Below the pieces are notes generated by a model that was given only the letters and a program-made list of their open reading frames with translations, was not told where the DNA came from and made no database searches. From Bryobacterales bacterium (lineage in GTDB: Bacteria > Acidobacteriota > Terriglobia > Bryobacterales > UBA6623), in assembly GCA_965205445.1 (NCBI GenBank), contig CBDBHC010000002.1, forward strand, positions 306,463-370,462: a DNA stretch of 64,000 nt, written 5' to 3'. Position 1 is the first letter of the stretch; each line of letters starts with the position of its first letter. This document shows positions 22,690-32,986 of this stretch, piece after piece. The position numbers and the translations under genes are program-made.

Positions 22690-22814
22690 GCGCTCCGCTG
22701 GCGCGAATTCCGCGGAATCGGCCATCGATTCGGCAGGCCGGCTACTGCTCGGGAGGATGCACCCTCATGGAAGGGATTGATCCCGGTCGCGAGCGACACT
22801 CTCCCGGGGCAGGC

Positions 22815-25652
22815 ATGCGGGACTTCACAAGGAATCCTTGGGTGCTCGGCGCCAGCCGATTGGTCACAGGCTTCGATTGGTCCGTCAGGCGATTTGGAGC
22901 GAGCAGCCGGCAGGCGGTTGATCGACCGGTTCCCTCTGCGCCATCAGTGATTGCCGGTCTGGCAGCCATGCTTTGCATTCCCGGCCTCGCGGCGCAATGC
23001 CTGGAGGTGAGAGTCCTTGACCCGGCTTCGACTCCAGTGCCCACCGCATTCGTCTCGACCGGCAGCAGGGAGATTCCGGTCGGCAGCGACGGAGTCGTGT
23101 TGATCTGCGACTTGGGCGACGGGCCGCACTCCCTGCTGATCACGGCGCCTGGATTCAATGCCGTGCAACTGACGGTCGATGGGCCGCCGGGAAGTGTGGA
23201 GGTCGTACTGGAAATCGAGACGCTGACGCAGGACTTGGTGGTCGTTGGAAGTCGCGCCGAAGCCAGGGCGGTCACGGAATCGATCGTCCCTGTCGACCTC
23301 CTTCCCGCTTCCGAGTTCGCTGAGCAGGGCGATCCGGACGTCCTCAACCAGCTCCGAAACGTCGTGCCGTCGTTCAACGTGAACGTTCAGCCGATCAGCG
23401 GCGGCGCGATGATCGTCCGCCCGGCGAACCTGCGCAACCTCGCACCGGACCATGTTCTGGTGCTGGTCAACGGAAAGCGTCGCCACCGGGCCGCACTGAT
23501 TGCCTGGCACGGCAACGGCGTATCGGACGGATCACAGGGCCCGGACATCTCGCCGATTCCTTCGATCGCTCTGCGACAGGTCGAGGTCCTCCGCGACGGC
23601 GCGTCCGCCCAGTATGGATCCGACGCCATTGCAGGAGTAATGAACTTCACGCTCAAGGACAGCCCGAGAGGCGGCTCCTTCGAGATTCGCACCGGTCAGT
23701 TCTACGAGGGCGACGGAAACCGCCTGGTGGTGGCCGGCAACGTCGGACTGCCGCTGGGCGAGGGCGGGTTTGCCAATCTTAGCCTCGAATACGGCAATGC
23801 AGAACCGACCAGCCGCAGCGTCCAGCGCGACGACGCGGCCGCACTGATCGCTGCCGGCAACCAGCACGTCCGCACTCCAGTCGTCCAGGTCTGGGGCTCG
23901 CCGGAGTTGAAGGACGACGTGAAGTTCTTCGGCAACTTCGGCAAGCTCCTCGGCGAATCGACCCAGGCCTACGGGCACACGAGCTATTCGAGCCGGAAGG
24001 CAACTGGCGGGTTCTTTTTCCGGAATCCGAATACCAGGGCCGGCGTGTACAGTATTGACCGCGGCAGGACGCTCCTGGTGGGCGACGCGCTCGATGCGCA
24101 AGATGGCATCTTCGACGGCTCGGCGAACTGCCCCGAGGTCCCGATCGTTGACCATGTGCCGAACGAAGCCGGGCTCGCCCGTGTGCTCGCTGACCCCAAT
24201 TGCTTCACGTTCCGGGAACTCTATCCAGGCGGCTTCACGCCGCAATTCGGCGGCTATTACACCGACAGCTCGCTCGTTGGCGGACTGCGAGGCCAGTTTG
24301 CCAGCGGGATCACATGGGACGCGAGCGTCGGGCTGGGATCGAGCGAAGTTGACTTTTTCATCTTTGACACGGTCAATGCGTCACTCGGCCCGGAGTCTCC
24401 GACGGCGTTCAGGCCGGGAATCTACCGCCAGGAAGAGTTCACCCTCAACCTCGACTTCGCCTACGCCGCAAGTGAAGTGATTCACCTGGCCGCGGGCGGG
24501 GAGTTCCGGAATGAGGAATTCACGATCGTGCAGGGCGATCAGCCCTCCTGGGAGCTCGGGCCATACCTTCGTCAGGGATTCAGTGCGGGATCGAACGGGT
24601 TCGCCGGCTTCAGCCCGCTCGCGGCTGGTAGCTGGGACCGGCCCAACGGCGCCGTGTATGGCGATATCGAGATCTCGGATGCACTGGACAGGTATACCCT
24701 TGACGGCGCGATCCGCGCCGAGCGGTTCGCTGGGTTCGGTGGAACGGTCAACGGCAAGATCGCGGGTCGCGTCGAGCTGGGCAGGGGGCTCGCGTTGCGG
24801 ACCAGCTGGAGCACCGGGTTCCGTGCGCCGACGCCCGGGCAGCAGAATGCCTACAACCTCTCATCGCAATGGGATCCGGATCTGATGGACCTGGTCAACG
24901 TCGGCACGATCCCGTCGACCACCGCGGTCGCGGCTCTCCGGGGCGGCAAGGCTCTCGAACCGGAGACGTCCGTCAACTTCACCGTCGGCGCAGTGGCGCA
25001 GGCCGGTGCGCTGTCGCTGACGTCTGACTATTTCCGCATCGCAATTAGCGACCGGCTGGCTCTGGCCAGCGATTTCGTCTTGACGACAGACGAGGTGCGT
25101 GACCTCCTTGCCGAGGGGGTGACCAGCGCGAGGAACCTGAATGAATTCCGGTTTTTCACGAACGACTTCGACACGCTGACGCAAGGAATCGACATTGTGG
25201 CCACGCTGGTTCCGGCACCGCAGACAGAGGTCACGTTTCTCTTCAACCGAACGGACACCACGGTCGTCCAATTCAACCCGGAGATCGTGTCCGCTCTTCG
25301 CATCAAGCAGCTCCAGGAGAGTCTCCCGAAGACCCGTTGGAATGCGGCCTTGAGCCGGGAGTTCGGGCGCTTCAGCGTGCTTGCCCGCGTGAGCTACTAC
25401 GGCGGGTGGTTCGACGACGACGACAACCAGAACTACACAGGCAAGCATCTAGCGGACTTCGAATTCTCATTCAAGCTTCGTCCCGACTTGAAGCTCGCCG
25501 CAGGCGCACAGAACGCGTTCAACACGTTCACCGACCGGAGCAGGCTCGGGTCTGCGGGGCCGGGAAACCTCTACAGCCAGTTCTCTCCGTACGGATTCGA
25601 CGGGGGTTACTACTACCTTCGCCTCAACTACAGCTGGGGCACGACCTTTTGA
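22815..25652 (+). CDS. TonB-dependent receptor with an N-terminal carboxypeptidase-regulatory-like domain
   Basis: 'LEVRVLDPASTPVPTAFV' marks the CarbopepD_reg-like domain. The plug motifs are 'LRNLAPDHVLVLVNGKR' and 'IALRQVEVLRDGASAQYGSDAIAGVMNF'. The C-terminal 'YYLRLNYSWGTTF' ends in a terminal Phe. The start is uncertain (the ORF is open from 22767). Confidence 0.9.
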   Translation: MRDFTRNPWVLGASRLVTGFDWSVRRFGASSRQAVDRPVPSAPSVIAGLAAMLCIPGLAAQCLEVRVLDPASTPVPTAFVSTGSREIPVGSDGVVLICDLGDGPHSLLITAPGFNAVQLTVDGPPGSVEVVLEIETLTQDLVVVGSRAEARAVTESIVPVDLLPASEFAEQGDPDVLNQLRNVVPSFNVNVQPISGGAMIVRPANLRNLAPDHVLVLVNGKRRHRAALIAWHGNGVSDGSQGPDISPIPSIALRQVEVLRDGASAQYGSDAIAGVMNFTLKDSPRGGSFEIRTGQFYEGDGNRLVVAGNVGLPLGEGGFANLSLEYGNAEPTSRSVQRDDAAALIAAGNQHVRTPVVQVWGSPELKDDVKFFGNFGKLLGESTQAYGHTSYSSRKATGGFFFRNPNTRAGVYSIDRGRTLLVGDALDAQDGIFDGSANCPEVPIVDHVPNEAGLARVLADPNCFTFRELYPGGFTPQFGGYYTDSSLVGGLRGQFASGITWDASVGLGSSEVDFFIFDTVNASLGPESPTAFRPGIYRQEEFTLNLDFAYAASEVIHLAAGGEFRNEEFTIVQGDQPSWELGPYLRQGFSAGSNGFAGFSPLAAGSWDRPNGAVYGDIEISDALDRYTLDGAIRAERFAGFGGTVNGKIAGRVELGRGLALRTSWSTGFRAPTPGQQNAYNLSSQWDPDLMDLVNVGTIPSTTAVAALRGGKALEPETSVNFTVGAVAQAGALSLTSDYFRIAISDRLALASDFVLTTDEVRDLLAEGVTSARNLNEFRFFTNDFDTLTQGIDIVATLVPAPQTEVTFLFNRTDTTVVQFNPEIVSALRIKQLQESLPKTRWNAALSREFGRFSVLARVSYYGGWFDDDDNQNYTGKHLADFEFSFKLRPDLKLAAGAQNAFNTFTDRSRLGSAGPGNLYSQFSPYGFDGGYYYLRLNYSWGTTF

Positions 25653-25899: not shown

Positions 25900-26397
25900 T
25901 TACCAGGAGATTCTCACCCCTTGAGAGCCGTCGGGGAGACTCTCGCTTGGCGAATTCCACGATTCGCGCCATTCCCGTGCAGACGCTCGTGATTTCTCGT
26001 CAGCCTTTACCCACCATGCATCGCATTCCGGTCGGACGCAGCTTGCCTTCCGAATCTCCCCGGGCGCGCCGCGCCGCAAGCACCCGAACGAACTCATTGC
26101 CTCAACTAAGAAGACGGCCCCCTCTTGAATTAGCGTAGACCTCGTCGTGCGCACGTCCAGCTCGCCGGACTTCTCCTTAATCCAGCGCAGACGCCACTCT
26201 ACGTGTTCGGGGTCCGCAGGGCGTTCGTCCTGTTCCGCTCTCAACGTCAGGAACAATGCGCGGATCAGTCCGCCCCAGCCCGCCCGTCCGGCCCAGAGGC
26301 GCATTGCGTACTCATCGTTCATAGCCTCCATTAGCAGCACTACCTCCCTGCCGCAGTGGTTCTCCAGCTGGCCGTAATTCCTCCAATCGTACGTGTC
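25900..26397 (-). CDS. Hypothetical protein, or the distal part of a TGA-interrupted 324-codon frame
   Basis: This ORF is in the same reading frame as 26398..26871 and begins directly after that ORF's TGA. Possible independent starts are GTG at 26340 and ATG at 26331. Third-codon positions are mostly G/C by eye. No family was recognised. Confidence 0.35.
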   Translation of the reverse strand, partial: DTYDWRNYGQLENHCGREVVLLMEAMNDEYAMRLWAGRAGWGGLIRALFLTLRAEQDERPADPEHVEWRLRWIKEKSGELDVRTTRSTLIQEGAVFLVEAMSSFGCLRRGAPGEIRKASCVRPECDAWWVKADEKSRASAREWRESWNSPSESLPDGSQGVRISW

Positions 26398-26871
26398 TCA
26401 ATCGGGTCCACCGGTCCTGCTGCGAATACCCTGCGTCCACTGCCCTGGCGATACCATCCTTGGAGCACGTTTCCCGCTCGGCTCTGGCCAGTTCTTGGCA
26501 AGGCGCACCGACTGCGAGCCCCGACACAGTCTGCATCGGCAGCCGACCGGCCGCAAGCGTGCGTCTCCTACGGGATCACCCTTGCCGCCGCACAGTTCAC
26601 ACGGCTTGGCACTGAGGGCCCGCGCTGCCATGGGGAGCCCTGCGGATGAATCCGGAGGGTCGGCAACCTCGAAAAGCAGACGACCCGCTTGAACGGTTAC
26701 GGCCCGAAGGTCCCGTTCGTCCTCGTCAAGGCACCTCGCTTCCCCGGTAAGGTTCGAAGCGGGTTCCACGATCGTGGCCCATCCCGGAAGAACCGAAGCG
26801 TCGTGTGGCTGGTCGGTGGTGACTGCCGATGGTCCCATGGCCGCAGCATAGGGCCGAGCCGGCATCTGCAA
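26398..26871 (-). CDS. Hypothetical protein with a Cys-rich segment, divergent from the primase-helicase gene
   Basis: A 157-aa ORF starts 115 bp from the divergent gene at 26987. It contains 'KPCELCGGKGDPVGDARLRPVGCRCRLC', a possible zinc ribbon. No family was recognised. Confidence 0.35.
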   Translation of the reverse strand: MQMPARPYAAAMGPSAVTTDQPHDASVLPGWATIVEPASNLTGEARCLDEDERDLRAVTVQAGRLLFEVADPPDSSAGLPMAARALSAKPCELCGGKGDPVGDARLRPVGCRCRLCRGSQSVRLAKNWPEPSGKRAPRMVSPGQWTQGIRSRTGGPD

Positions 26872-26986: not shown

Positions 26987-29440
26987 ATGGCCGGTTCGAC
27001 ATCAGAAAGAAACAAGGAGGCCCTCCGCGACGCCATTTCACGGAAGGCTGCGGAACTGAGGGTCATAGACCAACGCCGGGTATCCGCCCAACACGAGTTG
27101 CGGCGCCTCAATGAGGAACTTGAGAGCTTGAAGGATTGGACTGCAGGGTCCCTGAACCAAAGGGCAGCCCGCGACGGGGATGTCCCGTCGACACCGGCTC
27201 AAAAGATCGCATTGTTCCGCTCCTTGTTTCGCGGCCGAGAGGACGTGTACCCCAAGTTCTGGACCAACATCGGCACCGGGCGCAGTGGCTACGCGCCAGC
27301 ATGCGAGAACGAATGGGTCCGAGGGATCTGCGAAAAGCCCCGCGTTAAGTGCGGCGATTGCCGGCATCAGCGGTTCCTGCCTGTCCAGGACCGCGTATTG
27401 CTGGATCACTTCCAGGGAAGGCACGTTGTCGGCGTCTATCCGCTTCTGGCTGACGACACGTGCTGGCTTCTGGCTGCCGACTTTGACAAGCAGGATTGGA
27501 TGGGAGATGTCGCCGCATTCCGTGAGGTGTGCGACAGCGAGGGACTGCCCGTCGCGGTCGAGCGCTCACGCTCGGGTGAGGGAGCGCATGCCTGGTTTTT
27601 CTTCGACCGGGCCCTGCCGGCCGTGCAGGCTCGCCAGATGGGCTGCTTCCTGATTACAAAGGCCATGCGAAATCGCCATAATCTCGACGTAGGGTCATAT
27701 GACCGGCTGTTCCCTAGCCAGGACACGCTGCCCCGCGGCGGCTTCGGCAACTTGATAGCGTTGCCGCTACAGCGCGAAGCGCGGTTGCGAGGCAACACGG
27801 TATTCGTTGACGGTGAATTCCGAGCGCATCCGGATCAGTGGGCATACATTGCCGGAGTGCGGCGAATCCCGGCTGCGACTGTCGAGCAGGTCGCATCGGA
27901 AGCCTTTGGCAGAGGATGCGTGCTGAGTGTCCGTCGATACGGTCGCAACCAGCACGGATCCCCTGCAATGCATCTGGCGGAATCAAGTGCAGCGACTCGC
28001 GATGGCGCGCATCAGCAGATTCCGCTTCCAGAGCAAGTCGAAGCCACGCTCGCGAACGGCCTTCGTGTCGACAAGGAGGGCCTTCCGTCCCCAGTCCTCA
28101 GTGCCCTCAAAGGAGTTGCTTCCTTTCAGAATCCGGAATTCTACAAGAGGCAGAGGATGCGGCTCTCCACGGCCCTGACACCGCGCGTGATCGCGTGTGC
28201 CGAAGATCTTGAGGCCGAAATGGTGCTGCCACGCGGGTGTGCCGAAGACGTCTCAGCCCTGCTGCGCTCGATGGGCACGAGACTCGAAGTCAAGGATCTC
28301 CGAGAGCGGGGTCGAGAACTCGATGTCGAGTTCCAAGGCACCCTGCGAGGGTTCCAGGAAGACGCGGTTGTCGCTCTCCTGGCGAACGACACTGGCGTAC
28401 TGGTCGCCCCACCGGGAACCGGCAAGACGGTGATGGGCATCGCGTTGATGGCTCGACGGGGTCGCAGCACCCTGGTGCTTGTCCACCGTCAACCGCTCTT
28501 GGATCAATGGAAAGCGCACCTTGCCGCGTTTCTTGACGTCGATCCGAAATCGATCGGATGCCTCGGCGGCGGCAAGCGCTCGCTGACGGGCCTCATTGAT
28601 GTGGCGATGATTCAGAGCCTGGCGCGCGGGAACCAGGCTGCCGAACTCATGGACCGCTACGGTCATGTAGTCGTCGACGAGTGCCATCACGTTCCCGCGT
28701 TTTCGTTCGAGCGAGTCGTCGCAAGGTCCCAGGCGCGATACCTGACTGGACTCACGGCATCGCCCCGCCGTCGTGACGGGTTGCATCCGATCCTCGAGAT
28801 GCAGCTGGGACCGGTGCGATTCGGGGCTGACGACGGCTTGGTGTCGAGCCGGCCCCCCTTCGCACGTCGGCTGATTGTCCGAGAGACAGGCTTCGAGCTA
28901 CCTAGTTCGGAGGCCGATCCTCCGATTCAGCGGATCTACAAGTCGCTTGCCTGCGACGAGCACCGCAACTCGATGATCTTGAACGACATCATCGGCTCTC
29001 TCGACGAGGGACGCTCCCCCATCGTTTTGACGGAACGAAGGGACCATCTCGAATTCCTTGCCGAGCGGCTTACGGGATTCGCAAAGAACCTGATCGTGCT
29101 TCGTGGCGGGGTCTCGGCGAAGCGGCGTGGCACAATGCTCCGGGCGTTGAAGGCCGTTCCAGATGGCGAGGAGCGTCTCGTCCTGGCGACGGGCCGCTAT
29201 ATCGGCGAGGGCTTCGACGATCCGAGGCTTGACACGCTTTTCCTTACGATGCCCGTGTCGTGGCGGGGCACGATCGTGCAGTATGCAGGTCGCCTGCATC
29301 GCATGCATCCCGGAAAACAGGAAGTTCGGATTTTCGATTACGCAGACCGAAGGGTTCCGGTCCTCGCCCGCATGTTCGCCAGGCGCGTCGCCGGTTATCG
29401 ATCACTCGGATACAAGGACATCGGCGGTCCGGCACTTTGA
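26987..29440 (+). CDS. Fusion protein: N-terminal coiled coil + archaeo-eukaryotic primase (AEP/PrimPol)-like domain + SF2 DEAD/DEAH (DECH) helicase
   Basis: AEP motifs are 'WLLAADFDKQDW' (DxD), 'SGEGAHAWFFF' (sxH) and 'YDRLFPSQDTLPRGGFGNLIALPL'. There is a Cys cluster 'CENEWVRGICEKPRVKCGDC'. Helicase motifs are I 'APPGTGKT', II 'VVVDECHH', III 'LTGLTASP', V 'LATGRYIGEGFD' and VI 'QYAGRLHR'. Confidence 0.85.
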   Translation: MAGSTSERNKEALRDAISRKAAELRVIDQRRVSAQHELRRLNEELESLKDWTAGSLNQRAARDGDVPSTPAQKIALFRSLFRGREDVYPKFWTNIGTGRSGYAPACENEWVRGICEKPRVKCGDCRHQRFLPVQDRVLLDHFQGRHVVGVYPLLADDTCWLLAADFDKQDWMGDVAAFREVCDSEGLPVAVERSRSGEGAHAWFFFDRALPAVQARQMGCFLITKAMRNRHNLDVGSYDRLFPSQDTLPRGGFGNLIALPLQREARLRGNTVFVDGEFRAHPDQWAYIAGVRRIPAATVEQVASEAFGRGCVLSVRRYGRNQHGSPAMHLAESSAATRDGAHQQIPLPEQVEATLANGLRVDKEGLPSPVLSALKGVASFQNPEFYKRQRMRLSTALTPRVIACAEDLEAEMVLPRGCAEDVSALLRSMGTRLEVKDLRERGRELDVEFQGTLRGFQEDAVVALLANDTGVLVAPPGTGKTVMGIALMARRGRSTLVLVHRQPLLDQWKAHLAAFLDVDPKSIGCLGGGKRSLTGLIDVAMIQSLARGNQAAELMDRYGHVVVDECHHVPAFSFERVVARSQARYLTGLTASPRRRDGLHPILEMQLGPVRFGADDGLVSSRPPFARRLIVRETGFELPSSEADPPIQRIYKSLACDEHRNSMILNDIIGSLDEGRSPIVLTERRDHLEFLAERLTGFAKNLIVLRGGVSAKRRGTMLRALKAVPDGEERLVLATGRYIGEGFDDPRLDTLFLTMPVSWRGTIVQYAGRLHRMHPGKQEVRIFDYADRRVPVLARMFARRVAGYRSLGYKDIGGPAL

Positions 29441-29879: not shown

Positions 29880-29949
29880 GAGTCACAATCACGCGAATAG
29901 AGATGATAATAAGAATAAATCTCCATTATAGTAAGAATATTGAAGAAAA
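29880..29949 (+). promoter_or_regulatory. AT-rich putative promoter/leader region of the two-gene module
   Basis: About 70 bp of strikingly AT-rich sequence ('GATGATAATAAGAATAAATCTCCATTATAGTAAGAATATTGAAGAAAA') sits in an otherwise GC-rich genome. It includes a TATAGT -10-like hexamer at 29927-29932. A homologous AT-rich block precedes the second copy (about 31905-31943). Confidence 0.3.
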
Positions 29950-30552
29950 ATGATTGCCAATCGCGATAATCCGTGTTTCAATTACAGGGTAATGCCCAGT
30001 TCCAGCTCAGACGACCTGATGCCGACCTACTGGTATCCGGGGCTGGGAAAGTACCACCAAGCTGTCCGGATTCCCGTGACGAGCCCGACTCGATACGTCT
30101 CGTATGAGGCCGCCCTCAATCTCCGTCTGCCGGGCGAGGACACCGGCGACTGGCACGGCGATGTGCCGTTCGTCACGTCAGTTGACAATCCCCGGACACT
30201 AACGCTCGCCGGACCTGGGGGCGTGTCCGACACCACTCCAAGTCTCGGTAGCAAGGGCGTTCGAGACATGGCCCAAGTCCTTGAGGGCCAGTATATCCCT
30301 CCTGGCTGCGGCCCGGTCTGGGTGGCTAATCACTATCGCGCGATTGCGGACTACGTGCTCATTGACACACACGCGTGCTGGTGTGCGAAGCATCCGAGAC
30401 ACGTCCCGGTCTACAACATCAACCAGTGGCTTGAGACTCCTGAGCAGATCGAACATCTGGTCGAGGTGTACCTCAAGCCGCTTCGGAACCAGCTCTCGCC
30501 TGAGGAAAGGGCACTCCACGACGCATGGCTACCGACCGTAGTATTCGGCTGA
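29950..30552 (+). CDS. Uncharacterised 200-aa Cys/Trp/His-rich protein, upstream partner (putative antitoxin/regulator) of the AbiEii-like NTase
   Basis: The ORF has an ATG start and overlaps the downstream NTase gene by 28 nt. A paralogue about 80% identical lies 2015 bp downstream. Conserved blocks are 'WYPGLG', 'TGDWHGD.PFVTSVDNPRTL', 'GCGPVWVANHYRAIADYVL' and 'CWCA...PRHVPV.NINQWL'. No known family was recognised. Confidence 0.75.
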   Translation: MIANRDNPCFNYRVMPSSSSDDLMPTYWYPGLGKYHQAVRIPVTSPTRYVSYEAALNLRLPGEDTGDWHGDVPFVTSVDNPRTLTLAGPGGVSDTTPSLGSKGVRDMAQVLEGQYIPPGCGPVWVANHYRAIADYVLIDTHACWCAKHPRHVPVYNINQWLETPEQIEHLVEVYLKPLRNQLSPEERALHDAWLPTVVFG

Positions 30553-31655
30553 CGCCAGAACAAGCACTCCACGAGCGCGTGATGAGAGCGGTCGCTCTCC
30601 GCATGTACGACACCCCGTTCGTGCTGAAGGGAGGGACTGCACTAGCGCTCCTGTACGGGCTGGACCGTCATTCTGTCGACCTCGACTTCGATTGTGGTAG
30701 CGCCAAGCGCTTGTCCATCGAGAACCACGTTCGCGATGGCCTGCGACAGGCCAATGTACCGATGTCGGCATTCAACCGAGGCCGTCCAATGTGGAAGGGA
30801 CGGCGGTTCAGGGTCCGATACATCAATCCGGACAACCACAAACAACGACTCCTGACGGTGGAATTGAGTTTCAGGACTCAGCCACGAGCTCACGACGTCG
30901 AAGTCGTGGATGGCATTCGCACCTACAAGATTCCGACCTTGTTTGATCAGAAGTTGAATGCCGCTGCTGACCGGACGAAGGCACGGGACCTGTATGATCT
31001 CGGGTTCTTGGCGGAATCCTATGGAGATAGCTTTTCGACCGAGCAGATCTCCAGAGCTGACGAATTCAATCGAGACTGGGAAGTCCTGGCAGGTCGGTAT
31101 CGCCGAGCATTCCAAACGGATGAGCTACTAAAGGACATTACCACTGCCGACGATCGGGCGCTGTTGTTCAGGATCGCGATTCTCGAACAGATGCACCGCC
31201 GAGGGCAGGTGGTCGCAGAGCAAGCCGTTCCTGCTGCGAGGTCGCTAGCGGACGAACTTGCCCTGCACAAAATCTGGCTCGAATCGAATGGGCGGACTGG
31301 TTTCCGTGCGGACCTCAGCGACAGGGGGTTTGCTGGGTCCGTCTTGTGTGGCGTCAACTTCGAGAGAGCGGACCTACGACGGGCCGACTTTTCGGGTGCG
31401 GACCTACGCAACGCGAACTTTCGGAACAGCGACCTGACCGAGGCAGTGTTCGACAAGACCGACCTAAGGGGGGCCGACTTCTCCGGCGCAGACCTCACGG
31501 ATGTGTCGTTGCGCAGTAGCATGCTCGGACCCACCACCAAGGGCTTCGCTGAGGCGCTCATGAAAGTTGCCACGTCTGATCGATCTCGCTACATCCCCTA
31601 CAGGCGAGCCCCAGCTCAGGCGGAACTCGAGAGGGACTTCGGCCCGTCACGGTAG
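30525..31655 (+). CDS. AbiEii/AbiGii (DUF1814, MenT-like) nucleotidyltransferase toxin-family protein fused to a C-terminal pentapeptide-repeat domain
   Basis: NTase motifs are 'FVLKGGTALALLY', 'RHSVDLDFD' and 'DRTKARDLYDLGFL'. The C-terminal residues ~258-332 (nt ~31296-31520) are tandem A(D/N)LXX pentapeptides: 'ADLRRADFSGADLRNANFRNSDLTEAVFDKTDLRGADFSGADLTD'. Confidence 0.85.
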   Translation: MATDRSIRLTPEQALHERVMRAVALRMYDTPFVLKGGTALALLYGLDRHSVDLDFDCGSAKRLSIENHVRDGLRQANVPMSAFNRGRPMWKGRRFRVRYINPDNHKQRLLTVELSFRTQPRAHDVEVVDGIRTYKIPTLFDQKLNAAADRTKARDLYDLGFLAESYGDSFSTEQISRADEFNRDWEVLAGRYRRAFQTDELLKDITTADDRALLFRIAILEQMHRRGQVVAEQAVPAARSLADELALHKIWLESNGRTGFRADLSDRGFAGSVLCGVNFERADLRRADFSGADLRNANFRNSDLTEAVFDKTDLRGADFSGADLTDVSLRSSMLGPTTKGFAEALMKVATSDRSRYIPYRRAPAQAELERDFGPSR

Positions 31656-31943: not shown

Positions 31944-32567
31944 TTGTACAAATATCGAAGCAAAACGATTGCTAATCAGGATGGCCCGTGCTTGAATGAT
32001 GAAGTCGTGCCAGAGCCCAGTTCAGACGATCTCCTGCCGACCTTTTGGTATCCCGGGTTGGGAGAGCACCACCGAGCTGTTCGGATTCCTGTAACGACGC
32101 CGACCCGCCATCTGTCCTACCTGACGGCCCTCAACCTTCGGCTGCCCGGGGAGGAAACCGGAGACTGGCACGGCGATCTGCCGTTCGTAACATCCGTTGA
32201 TAATCCGCGCACTCTACGACCCGCCGGTCCGGGCGGCTGGTCGGATACGACTCCTAGCCTCGGGAGCAAGGGCGTGCGAAACATGGCGCATCTCCTTGAG
32301 GGAAAGTATATTCCTCACGGCTGTGGGCCCGTCTGGGTGGCGAACCATTACCGCGCCATAGCGGACTATGTTCTTGTTGACACTCAAGGGTGCTGGTGCG
32401 CTCAGTTTCCGAGGCACGTTCCGGTCTGCAACATCAATCAGTGGCTGGACACTCCTGAGCAGGTTGAACAATTGGTGGAGGAGTACCTCAAGCCGCTTAG
32501 ACAACAGCTCTCGCCCGACGAAAAGGAGCTCCACGACGCATGGCTTCCGACCGTCGTATTCGGCTGA
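31944..32567 (+). CDS. Paralogue of the 200-aa uncharacterised partner protein (second copy)
   Basis: It is about 80% identical in amino acids to 29950..30552 over the whole length. The ATG of copy 1 is ACG here, so the start would be TTG at 31944 or another non-ATG codon. The same 28-nt overlap with the downstream ORF is present. Confidence 0.65.
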   Translation: MYKYRSKTIANQDGPCLNDEVVPEPSSDDLLPTFWYPGLGEHHRAVRIPVTTPTRHLSYLTALNLRLPGEETGDWHGDLPFVTSVDNPRTLRPAGPGGWSDTTPSLGSKGVRNMAHLLEGKYIPHGCGPVWVANHYRAIADYVLVDTQGCWCAQFPRHVPVCNINQWLDTPEQVEQLVEEYLKPLRQQLSPDEKELHDAWLPTVVFG

Positions 32568-32986
32568 CGCCGGAACAAGCACTTCACGAACGCGTGATGA
32601 GAGCGGTCGCGCTTCGGATGCAGAACCTTCCTTACGTGCTGAAGGGAGGCACTGCACTTGCGCTCCTATACCAGCTGGACCGTCACTCCGTCGACCTCGA
32701 CTTCGATTGTGGCAGCGGCAAGCGGGGCTCGATCGAGAACCACATTCGAGATGGCCTGCAGGACGCCGAGGTCTCGATGTCCTACTGCAAGCCGGAGCGC
32801 CGCACGTGGAAGGGCCAACGATTCGAGGCACATTACATAGATCCTGGCAGCAGGGAAGACCGACTCTTGAGGGTGGAATTGAGTTTCAGGACAGAGCCAC
32901 GAGCAGACGACGTCGTGATCGTGGATAGGATTCGCGGCCGAAATTGTCAGCGGCGACCCGCCGTGGATCGATCCGTCGGTCCTTAG
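32540..32986 (+). pseudogene. Truncated AbiEii-like NTase (second copy), lacking the KxRDxYD motif region and the pentapeptide domain
   Basis: The first ~132 aa align with 30525..31655 ('LKGGTALALLY', 'RHSVDLDFD' retained). Homology stops at about 32936, and the frame runs into unrelated sequence with a stop at 32984-32986. Confidence 0.65.

Follow-up and report, generated by a model that had tools for sequence, protein, structure and literature searches.

A stand-alone fusion of an AEP primase-polymerase and an XPB-like helicase beside two AbiE modules in a Bryobacterales bacterium

What is the role of a protein that joins a primase-polymerase to an XPB-like helicase, at a site with no replicon genes close by? 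The question is raised by a gene in a 64,000-nucleotide stretch of the genome of a Bryobacterales bacterium (GenBank assembly GCA_965205445.1, contig CBDBHC010000002.1, positions 306,463 to 370,462 of the forward strand), the whole of which is referred to below as the window. An initial annotation, made from the letters alone, described the product as a primase-polymerase domain of the AEP (archaeo-eukaryotic primase) type fused to a helicase of superfamily 2 (SF2), and suggested a defence role. Our analysis assigns this AEP-helicase to a family that is already catalogued and has spread horizontally, and for which a part in conflicts with invading DNA is predicted. At this locus, as at 80 related ones, the gene stands alone: the TPR-OB and TBP partners by which a complete TOTE system is recognised (TPR, OB, TBP, Effector; Aravind, Iyer and Burroughs 2022, in the summary given by PMC12458937) were not seen.

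Domains and catalytic sites of the protein

The length of the protein matches that of its homologues (810-835 aa). It starts with a long helix, followed by a four-cysteine insert, the AEP domain, a linker, and the XPB/Rad25-like SF2 helicase. Conservation was assessed in an alignment of the window protein with 37 homologues (55-73% identity), and the AlphaFold2 (AF2) model served for domain-level fold matching only, not for inter-domain geometry. The features are as follows, CAPP being a CRISPR-associated primase-polymerase (PrimPol).

26987..29440, plus strand: AEP primase-polymerase and XPB-like SF2 helicase fusion; complete open reading frame (ORF), 817 aa, ATG start
26996..27139, plus strand: N-terminal long helix, residues 4-51 (AF2 model, pLDDT ~88-90)
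27200..27889, plus strand: AEP-TOTE primase-polymerase domain, residues 72-301 (PF22548, PADLOC PDLC01465, CAPP by sequence and fold)
27302..27361, plus strand: four-cysteine cluster C106, C115, C122, C125; all invariant, in a low-confidence region of the AF2 model
27470..27487, plus strand: AEP motif I, LAADFD (LLAADFD; D165, D167); invariant, aligned to the CAPP segment AAYDID
27575..27604, plus strand: AEP motif II, GEGAHAWFFF (H201); G197, G199, A200, H201, W203, F205 and F206 invariant
27695..27769, plus strand: motif III region, SYDRLFPSQD (D239, D246) and then GGFGNLIALPLQ; invariant residues, aligned to the CAPP segment IDVEIFPKQTSLNGGLGNLIKVPL
28019..28321, plus strand: pre-helicase domain, residues ~345-445, with an invariant FQNPEFYK..R.ST segment (conservation; mixed local pLDDT)
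28343..28771, plus strand: helicase lobe 1 (ResIII), residues 453-595; GTGKT with K480, DECHH at 564-568, TAS at 590-592
28979..29305, plus strand: helicase lobe 2 (Helicase_C), residues 665-773; motifs V and VI (Q765..R769..R772)

The AEP assignment of the N-terminal half stands on the Pfam profile PF22548 (AEP-TOTE), which matches residues 72-301 with an E-value of 2.2e-92 and 309 bits, where the cut-off is 27, and is covered from position 1 to position 229 of its 230. The PADLOC model for Cas-associated PrimPol (PDLC01465) covers residues 67-364 with 1.4e-86. The catalytic motifs of both halves are all intact. Of the three AEP motifs named in the initial annotation, motifs I (D165, D167) and II (H201) hold, while the third, FGNLIALP, is not a strict AEP motif III because none of its residues is acidic; this conserved stretch also occurs in CAPP (GGLGNLIKVPL). 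Both the S237-Y238-D239...Q245-D246 segment and the GGFGNLIALP element are invariant, and the third carboxylate is likely D239 or D246, judging from the alignment. The cysteine cluster, also seen at the outset, sits in an insert of ~40 residues that has no counterpart in the CAPP alignment and that is probably a zinc-binding element. The coiled coil proposed for the N-terminus is modelled as a single long helix (pLDDT ~90) and probably serves for coiled-coil formation or dimerisation. Its conservation is weak, and homologues from plasmids align only from about residue 68.

Among solved structures, the nearest relative of the AEP domain is the Prim-Pol domain of Marinitoga CAPP (7nqd/7nqf), both by sequence (7nqd, 3e-12) and by fold (7nqe/7nqf, target-normalised TM 0.70-0.72, Foldseek on the AF2 model). 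The two proteins have in common the segments FxGREDV, DxD, GxH.W.FFD and GG.GNLI..PL, but the identity is only ~20%, the four-Cys insert is extra in the window protein, and its long N-terminal helix takes the place of the TPR domain of MpCAPP. CAPP is also CRISPR-associated, whereas the window showed neither a CRISPR array nor, in the scanned neighbourhood, a cas gene. MpCAPP acts as a DNA-dependent DNA primase and polymerase, and this activity needs the DxD pair D177/D179 (PMC8211822), whose equivalent in the window protein is D165/D167. The CAPP homologues from outside CRISPR loci have mostly a PrimPol-helicase architecture and are located in mobile elements (Zabrady et al. 2021, PMC8211822). 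The window protein fits this published description, and the fusion is thus not new. Its AEP domain is homologous to that of class CAPP_A, of which the 'CAPP-Helicase' type is among the closest known systems, and its family could equally be labelled 'non-CRISPR CAPP-helicase'. A correspondence to the all3500-like AEP family, for which mostly other helicase fusions are described (Kazlauskas et al. 2018), is not claimed.

The helicase half (453-773) is matched by ResIII (6e-20) and Helicase_C (3.9e-5) of Pfam. Its invariant residues are G477, G479, K480 and T481 of GTGKT, DECHH, T590 and A591, motif V, and Q765, G768, R769 and R772 of motif VI, so the full SF2 motif set read from the sequence is present. 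The likeness to Rad25 was likewise borne out: the best match to the C-terminal ~470 residues is archaeal XPB (6p4f, 3.8e-22), and the top fold match of the AF2 model is XPB-Bax1 (6p4o, 1e-16), followed by TFIIH XPB and T4 UvsW. The Foldseek alignments to XPB cover ~480-500 columns for targets of 437-442 residues, and the pre-helicase domain may correspond to the XPB N-terminal domain. Compared with XPB, the window helicase retains all SF2 motifs but lacks a Bax1-like nuclease partner and has a primase-polymerase joined to it. Its scores are far below the NCBIfam equivalog cut-offs (71.9 bits against 610 for NF045503, 45.6 against 328.7 for TIGR00603), and it is therefore no orthologue of XPB. 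NCBIfam gives sub-threshold matches only, namely to PrimPol_Msp, XPB, RadD and Rad25; the CRISPR-associated PrimPol_Msp model reaches 82 bits, under its 200-bit cut-off.

A large, patchily distributed family

A word-indexed protein search listed at least 8000 homologues, and the best 120 of them all combine AEP-TOTE with ResIII, at 55-91% identity. With the AEP domain as the only query, 7657 cluster-50 representatives match at E <=1e-3 and 1362 at <=1e-30. Among 185,579 species genomes (one genome per species) there are at least 593 loci, from which 80 were kept as a neighbourhood sample (more than 20 phyla, 46-58% identity); other analyses use 78, 85 or 95 loci. The distribution is patchy across phyla. 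In a neighbour-joining (NJ) tree, loci whose records name different phyla are placed next to each other, and this mixing points to horizontal transfer.

No full-length homologue is present in 50,697 phage genomes, where only the helicase half matches phage helicases. Full-length homologues are found on 98 plasmid records, mostly large alphaproteobacterial plasmids; counting any match, most of them partial, there are 315 plasmid records, and 110 of these are typed conjugative. The initial annotation held that its reading would fail without a significant AEP hit, or if the orthologues sat consistently in plasmid or prophage replication modules. The AEP hit is significant, and the orthologues have no such consistent setting: the phage records hold no full-length copy, and the neighbourhoods vary in the 80 genomes. 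Some variants of the family carry a C-terminal nuclease, either DUF559/Vsr-like (P0141) or PLD-like (P0199, P0214). N-terminal fusions were also seen, to GNAT in P0199 and to FMN_red in P0251, which could be gene-call artefacts.

The link to conflict systems brought up in the initial annotation does exist in the databases. Pfam files PF22548 as 'TOTE conflict system, AEP domain', and one homologue bears the NCBI name 'TOTE conflict system archaeo-eukaryotic primase domain-containing protein'. The AEP domain family that includes the window protein takes its name from TOTE, but the TPR, OB/CSD and TBP components were not found nearby. There is no gene with a TPR, cold-shock/S1 or TBP domain among the window ORFs of at least 150 aa scanned across 11-44 kb, and when 146 immediate neighbours were counted over 78 related loci, TPR, TBP and CSD were not among the families that are frequent. 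Because the other components were found neither here nor around the relatives, the locus is not filed as a TOTE system. The same scan across 11-44 kb gave no cas gene, and no CRISPR-like array was found in the window.

The islet and the neighbourhoods of homologues

The gene lies between a TonB-dependent receptor gene (22767-25652), preceded on the upstream side by a two-component system and unknown ORFs, and purH, carB and carA on the minus strand downstream. The DNA in between has a G+C content of 0.58-0.62, against 0.65-0.69 in the flanking housekeeping DNA, and holds a divergent broken gene, the AEP-helicase, a complete AbiE module and a degenerate tandem AbiE copy. The best explanation is that the AEP-helicase sits in a small acquired chromosomal islet beside two AbiE abortive-infection or toxin-antitoxin modules. 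The NTase modules pointed out as adjacent in the initial annotation are these two tandem AbiEi/AbiEii systems, of a type that also occurs without the helicase. As it had stated, no integrase, replication-initiator, capsid or partition gene lies within ~10 kb of the AEP-helicase. No tRNA, Rfam family, flanking direct or inverted repeats, or tandem repeats were found that would mark the boundaries of the islet. The other features of the islet are:

25903..26595, minus strand: divergent upstream gene; tblastn against the 231-aa orthologue of locus L002 gives 62% identity, with an in-frame stop at ~26398-26400
29950..31655, plus strand: AbiE module 1; AbiEi variant 29950-30552, AbiEii NTase-pentapeptide-repeat fusion 30525-31655
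31944..32986, plus strand: AbiE module 2, degenerate tandem copy; AbiEi 31944-32567, AbiEii 32540-32986, truncated to 148 aa

PADLOC recognises both genes of AbiE module 1 (AbiEi, PDLC02280, 1.5e-32; AbiEii, 3e-46). A gap of 510 nt separates it from the AEP-helicase, with promoter-like sites at 29882-29932 in a promoter and terminator scan whose counts were at background level only. The two AbiE copies form a 2015-nt direct repeat of 74% identity; in module 2, an antitoxin-like gene is left beside a decayed toxin. The AbiE variant of module 1 was seen also in L001 (12842-14499) and in L096-L098 (our numbers for loci in other genomes). Its AbiEi is non-canonical (~186-200 aa, no Pfam hit, PADLOC PDLC02280), and its toxin, the AbiEii NTase, is unusual in having pentapeptide repeats in place of the C-terminal part; DNA mimics such as Qnr and MfpA have this fold. 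Of this variant ~90 clusters at 90% identity were seen, some of them named Bryobacterales. The divergent gene is Cys-rich and lineage-specific, without a Pfam or PADLOC hit; it is intact (217-231 aa) beside the AEP-helicase only in the closest relatives L001-L003, and in the window copy several conserved Cys residues are substituted besides the in-frame stop.

The window arrangement is retained in a relative of 73% identity. In a relative of 63% identity, a divergent AbiEi_3/AbiEii pair lies upstream, among insertion sequence (IS) elements, and further close relatives are accompanied by IS66 and DUF4143 fragments or by Metallophos and AAA_33 genes. In general, the surroundings of the homologues differ from locus to locus, with an abundance of toxin-antitoxin, defence and mobile-element genes. 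The Pfam census of the 146 immediate neighbours gave AbiEii (8), AAA_14 (5), DUF4143 (4), CcbP-like (4), CopG (3), PIN (3), Zeta toxin (2) and HipA (1), along with BrxA, SNF2, integrases and transposases. PADLOC assigned the neighbours to AbiEii, PDC-S01 (AAA_14/DUF4143), BrxA, and BrxH/DrmD/HmaA-like helicases. A universal partner gene was rejected, as the largest neighbour clusters in an all-against-all ORF clustering of 85 loci comprise 9 loci.

A profile search aimed at AbiEii located it in 15 of the 80 loci, and in 13 of these the gene is co-oriented and within 900 nt upstream of the AEP-helicase. Random placement within the flanks would put 2.6 of the 15 there, and none of 200,000 simulations reached 13. 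These 13 loci are spread over at least 8 places in the NJ tree. The co-location of AbiE with the AEP-helicase is thus frequent but facultative. An obligate linkage, or an AbiE-linked three-gene system, was rejected: the adjacency is limited to 13 of 80 loci, and the window-type AbiE module occurs alone in L096-L098.

A different pair of genes follows the AEP-helicase in ~10 loci scattered over the tree: a CcbP-like gene (~117 aa) and then a gene for a 260-450 aa protein of neighbour cluster 11, which has no Pfam or PADLOC hit. In L007, L011, L016, L021, L026, L042, L044 and L045 the CcbP-like gene, translationally coupled to the AEP-helicase, begins either 4 nt ahead of the helicase stop or just past it; the pair is also present in L034, L058 and L075. 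It is a candidate for a second accessory module.

In 5 of the 7 plasmid loci inspected, three tyrosine recombinase genes in tandem lie no more than ~1 kb from the AEP-helicase, in surroundings with DUF736, DUF1738 (ArdC-like), ParB-like, strawberry-notch and toxin-antitoxin genes. The recombinase genes overlap; they are convergent to the AEP-helicase and ~40-70 nt away in L085, L088 and L090, and within ~1 kb in L089 and L091. We take this layout on alphaproteobacterial plasmids to be the 'recombinase in trio'. In L085, a CBASS operon lies 5 kb from the AEP-helicase homologue. Annotated replication-initiator genes are not adjacent to the plasmid copies inspected. On pTB1 of Sphingobium yanoikuyae (L087, 1185-9454) the AEP-helicase is the last gene of an operon with a 226-aa gene, an rve/Mu-type transposase, TniB and TniQ, and its start overlaps the tniQ stop; on pMl1 of S. 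meliloti (L086, 5625-9262) it follows TniQ by 132 nt. The position after tniQ is that of TnsE in Tn7, and the TniQ-linked homologues may be a transposon-recruited subclade. As a general feature the TniQ linkage was rejected (2 of 95 loci).

Possible roles and the balance of evidence

The reading that we favour, and to which we would give about an even chance, is that the AEP-helicase is a stand-alone conflict effector, which carries out helicase-coupled unscheduled priming to the detriment of an invader. The evidence extends to the identity of the domains, the intactness of the active sites and the associations in the genome; what the protein does, on which target and with what phenotype, is inferred. 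XPB translocates on duplex DNA and opens it, both in TFIIH and in archaeal XPB-Bax1. Powered by ATP, the XPB-like SF2 motor of the window protein would similarly move along a DNA duplex and open it. The fused CAPP-like primase-polymerase, with its putative Zn-binding insert, would then initiate a new DNA chain de novo on the strand thus exposed, and extend it with dNTPs, as may be expected from CAPP biochemistry. On the DNA of an invader (phage, plasmid or transforming DNA), such origin-independent priming would disturb replication; alternatively, it could produce aberrant DNA structures that are toxic or are attacked by other nucleases. Some members of the family bring their own nuclease, as a C-terminal PLD or Vsr-like domain, and the long N-terminal helix could mediate dimerisation.

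The conflict-effector reading is supported by the intact AEP and helicase sites together with the CAPP relatives, which are active DNA primases and polymerases; by the patchy spread across phyla, the variable defence and toxin-antitoxin neighbours and the upstream AbiEii gene in 13 of 80 loci; and by the nuclease-fused variants, the absence of a full-length homologue from the phage genomes searched and the conflict-system filing in Pfam. The low G+C content of the islet and the precedent of DRT7 (UG10) point the same way. In the latter, an experimentally validated anti-phage protein (RT-PrimPol; bioRxiv 10.64898/2026.04.18.719102), the PrimPol domain is the catalytic part and DNA synthesis is the defence output; its partner domain is a reverse transcriptase (RT), not a helicase, and its synthesis is protein-primed. 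There are three other cases in which a primase-polymerase is functionally coupled to a helicase: Ppol-Hel of the Thermus integrative and conjugative element (ICE) ICETh2 (PMC7693054), AgaPP with its PriCT-DUF3987 helicase (PMC11724360), and the AEP-SF3 proteins of the pRN1 type. These are likened to the window protein by their architecture, and differ from it in having SF3 or DUF3987-type helicases, encoded as separate genes or in other fusions. The pAgo-associated AgaPP and its helicase have an experimental link to repair and replication (PMC11724360). In Thermus, the ICE PrimPol was dispensable for replication of the element and limited the uptake of foreign or environmental DNA instead (PMC7693054).

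Several points weigh against a conflict effector. The searchable literature yielded no experiments on the AEP-helicase family, and PADLOC contains no system built around this protein. The argument for defence is one of guilt by association, and mobile elements, too, commonly carry toxin-antitoxin and defence genes. In all 3 further genomes that were checked (L096-L098) the window-type AbiE module occurs without the AEP-helicase. The full-length AF2 model is of moderate quality (pLDDT 67.7, pTM 0.40). Finally, the 98 plasmid carriers, some of them with the gene beside recombinase trios, conjugation-region genes or TniB-TniQ, fit a function that serves the element.

This last point leads to the strongest competitor, which we consider possible, though clearly less probable: a self-contained opening-and-priming module in the service of a plasmid, integrative element or Tn7-like transposon. 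It would prime the complementary strand after conjugative entry, or fill or repair transposition intermediates, and the window copy would be a chromosomal remnant. The full-length plasmid homologues and the share of conjugative types among the any-match plasmid records speak for such a service enzyme, as do the recombinase trios, the TniB-TniQ operon of pTB1 and the nearby TniQ of pMl1, integrases within 10 kb in 9 of 85 loci, and the activity of PrimPol and helicase pairs borne by mobile elements in replication and repair (PMC11724360). In the window and in the 73%-identical relative, however, the gene is surrounded neither by integrase, rep or tra genes nor by transposase ends; an adjacent mobility gene is lacking in most of the 80 genomic loci, and TniQ-type genes are confined to the two plasmid cases among 95 loci. 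The C-terminal nuclease fusions are hard to square with a replication helper, and the Thermus ICE PrimPol, not needed for replication and restricting DNA uptake, offers no encouragement for one either. An enzyme of host DNA repair or damage tolerance, in which the XPB-like helicase finds and opens damaged or stalled DNA and the PrimPol reprimes or fills gaps, seems improbable. The nearest solved helicases are indeed repair factors (XPB/Rad25, RadD, T4 UvsW), and numerous lineages have PrimPols that carry out repriming, translesion synthesis and end joining (PMC11724360). Against this stand the patchy distribution and the mixing of phyla in the NJ tree, the IS elements and toxin-antitoxin genes that abound around the homologues, and the position of the gene in a low-G+C islet; genes of the ku, ligD, uvr and recA type are not among the most frequent neighbour families. 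Least probable of all, to the point that we hardly expect it, is a role as the effector of a complete TOTE system or as a CRISPR-associated CAPP in spacer acquisition. The AEP domain is a central member of Pfam AEP-TOTE and matches the Cas-associated PrimPol model of PADLOC strongly, but neither the partner genes nor cas genes turned up in the scanned neighbourhood, the window has no array, and no partner family is frequent beside the related loci. For the window locus, complete TOTE or CRISPR membership is contradicted.

A broader generalisation of the conflict-effector reading is more tentative: the family could be a widespread single-gene anti-invader system based on origin-independent, helicase-coupled priming, which may cooperate with AbiE and of which a subclade may serve Tn7-like operons after tniQ. 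AbiEii is upstream and co-oriented in ~16% of the loci; in the window lineage, AbiE lies directly downstream instead.

For the window itself, the result is mostly a clean annotation, that of a stand-alone member of a catalogued family in an islet with two AbiE modules. The AEP-helicase fusion is already known, being catalogued in Pfam and mentioned by Zabrady et al. 2021. The remaining interest is that a large conserved family which recurs beside AbiE has no experiments that we could find in the searchable literature. The family numbers thousands of members, drawn from more than 20 phyla, and is conserved to an unusual degree (46-65% identity across phyla), its primase and helicase sites being intact. 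If the protein is a defence effector, DNA synthesis by a primase-helicase would join the known immune outputs, for which the DRT-type reverse transcriptases are a precedent, and this would explain the recurrence of CAPP-like PrimPols beside CRISPR, Argonaute and AbiE.

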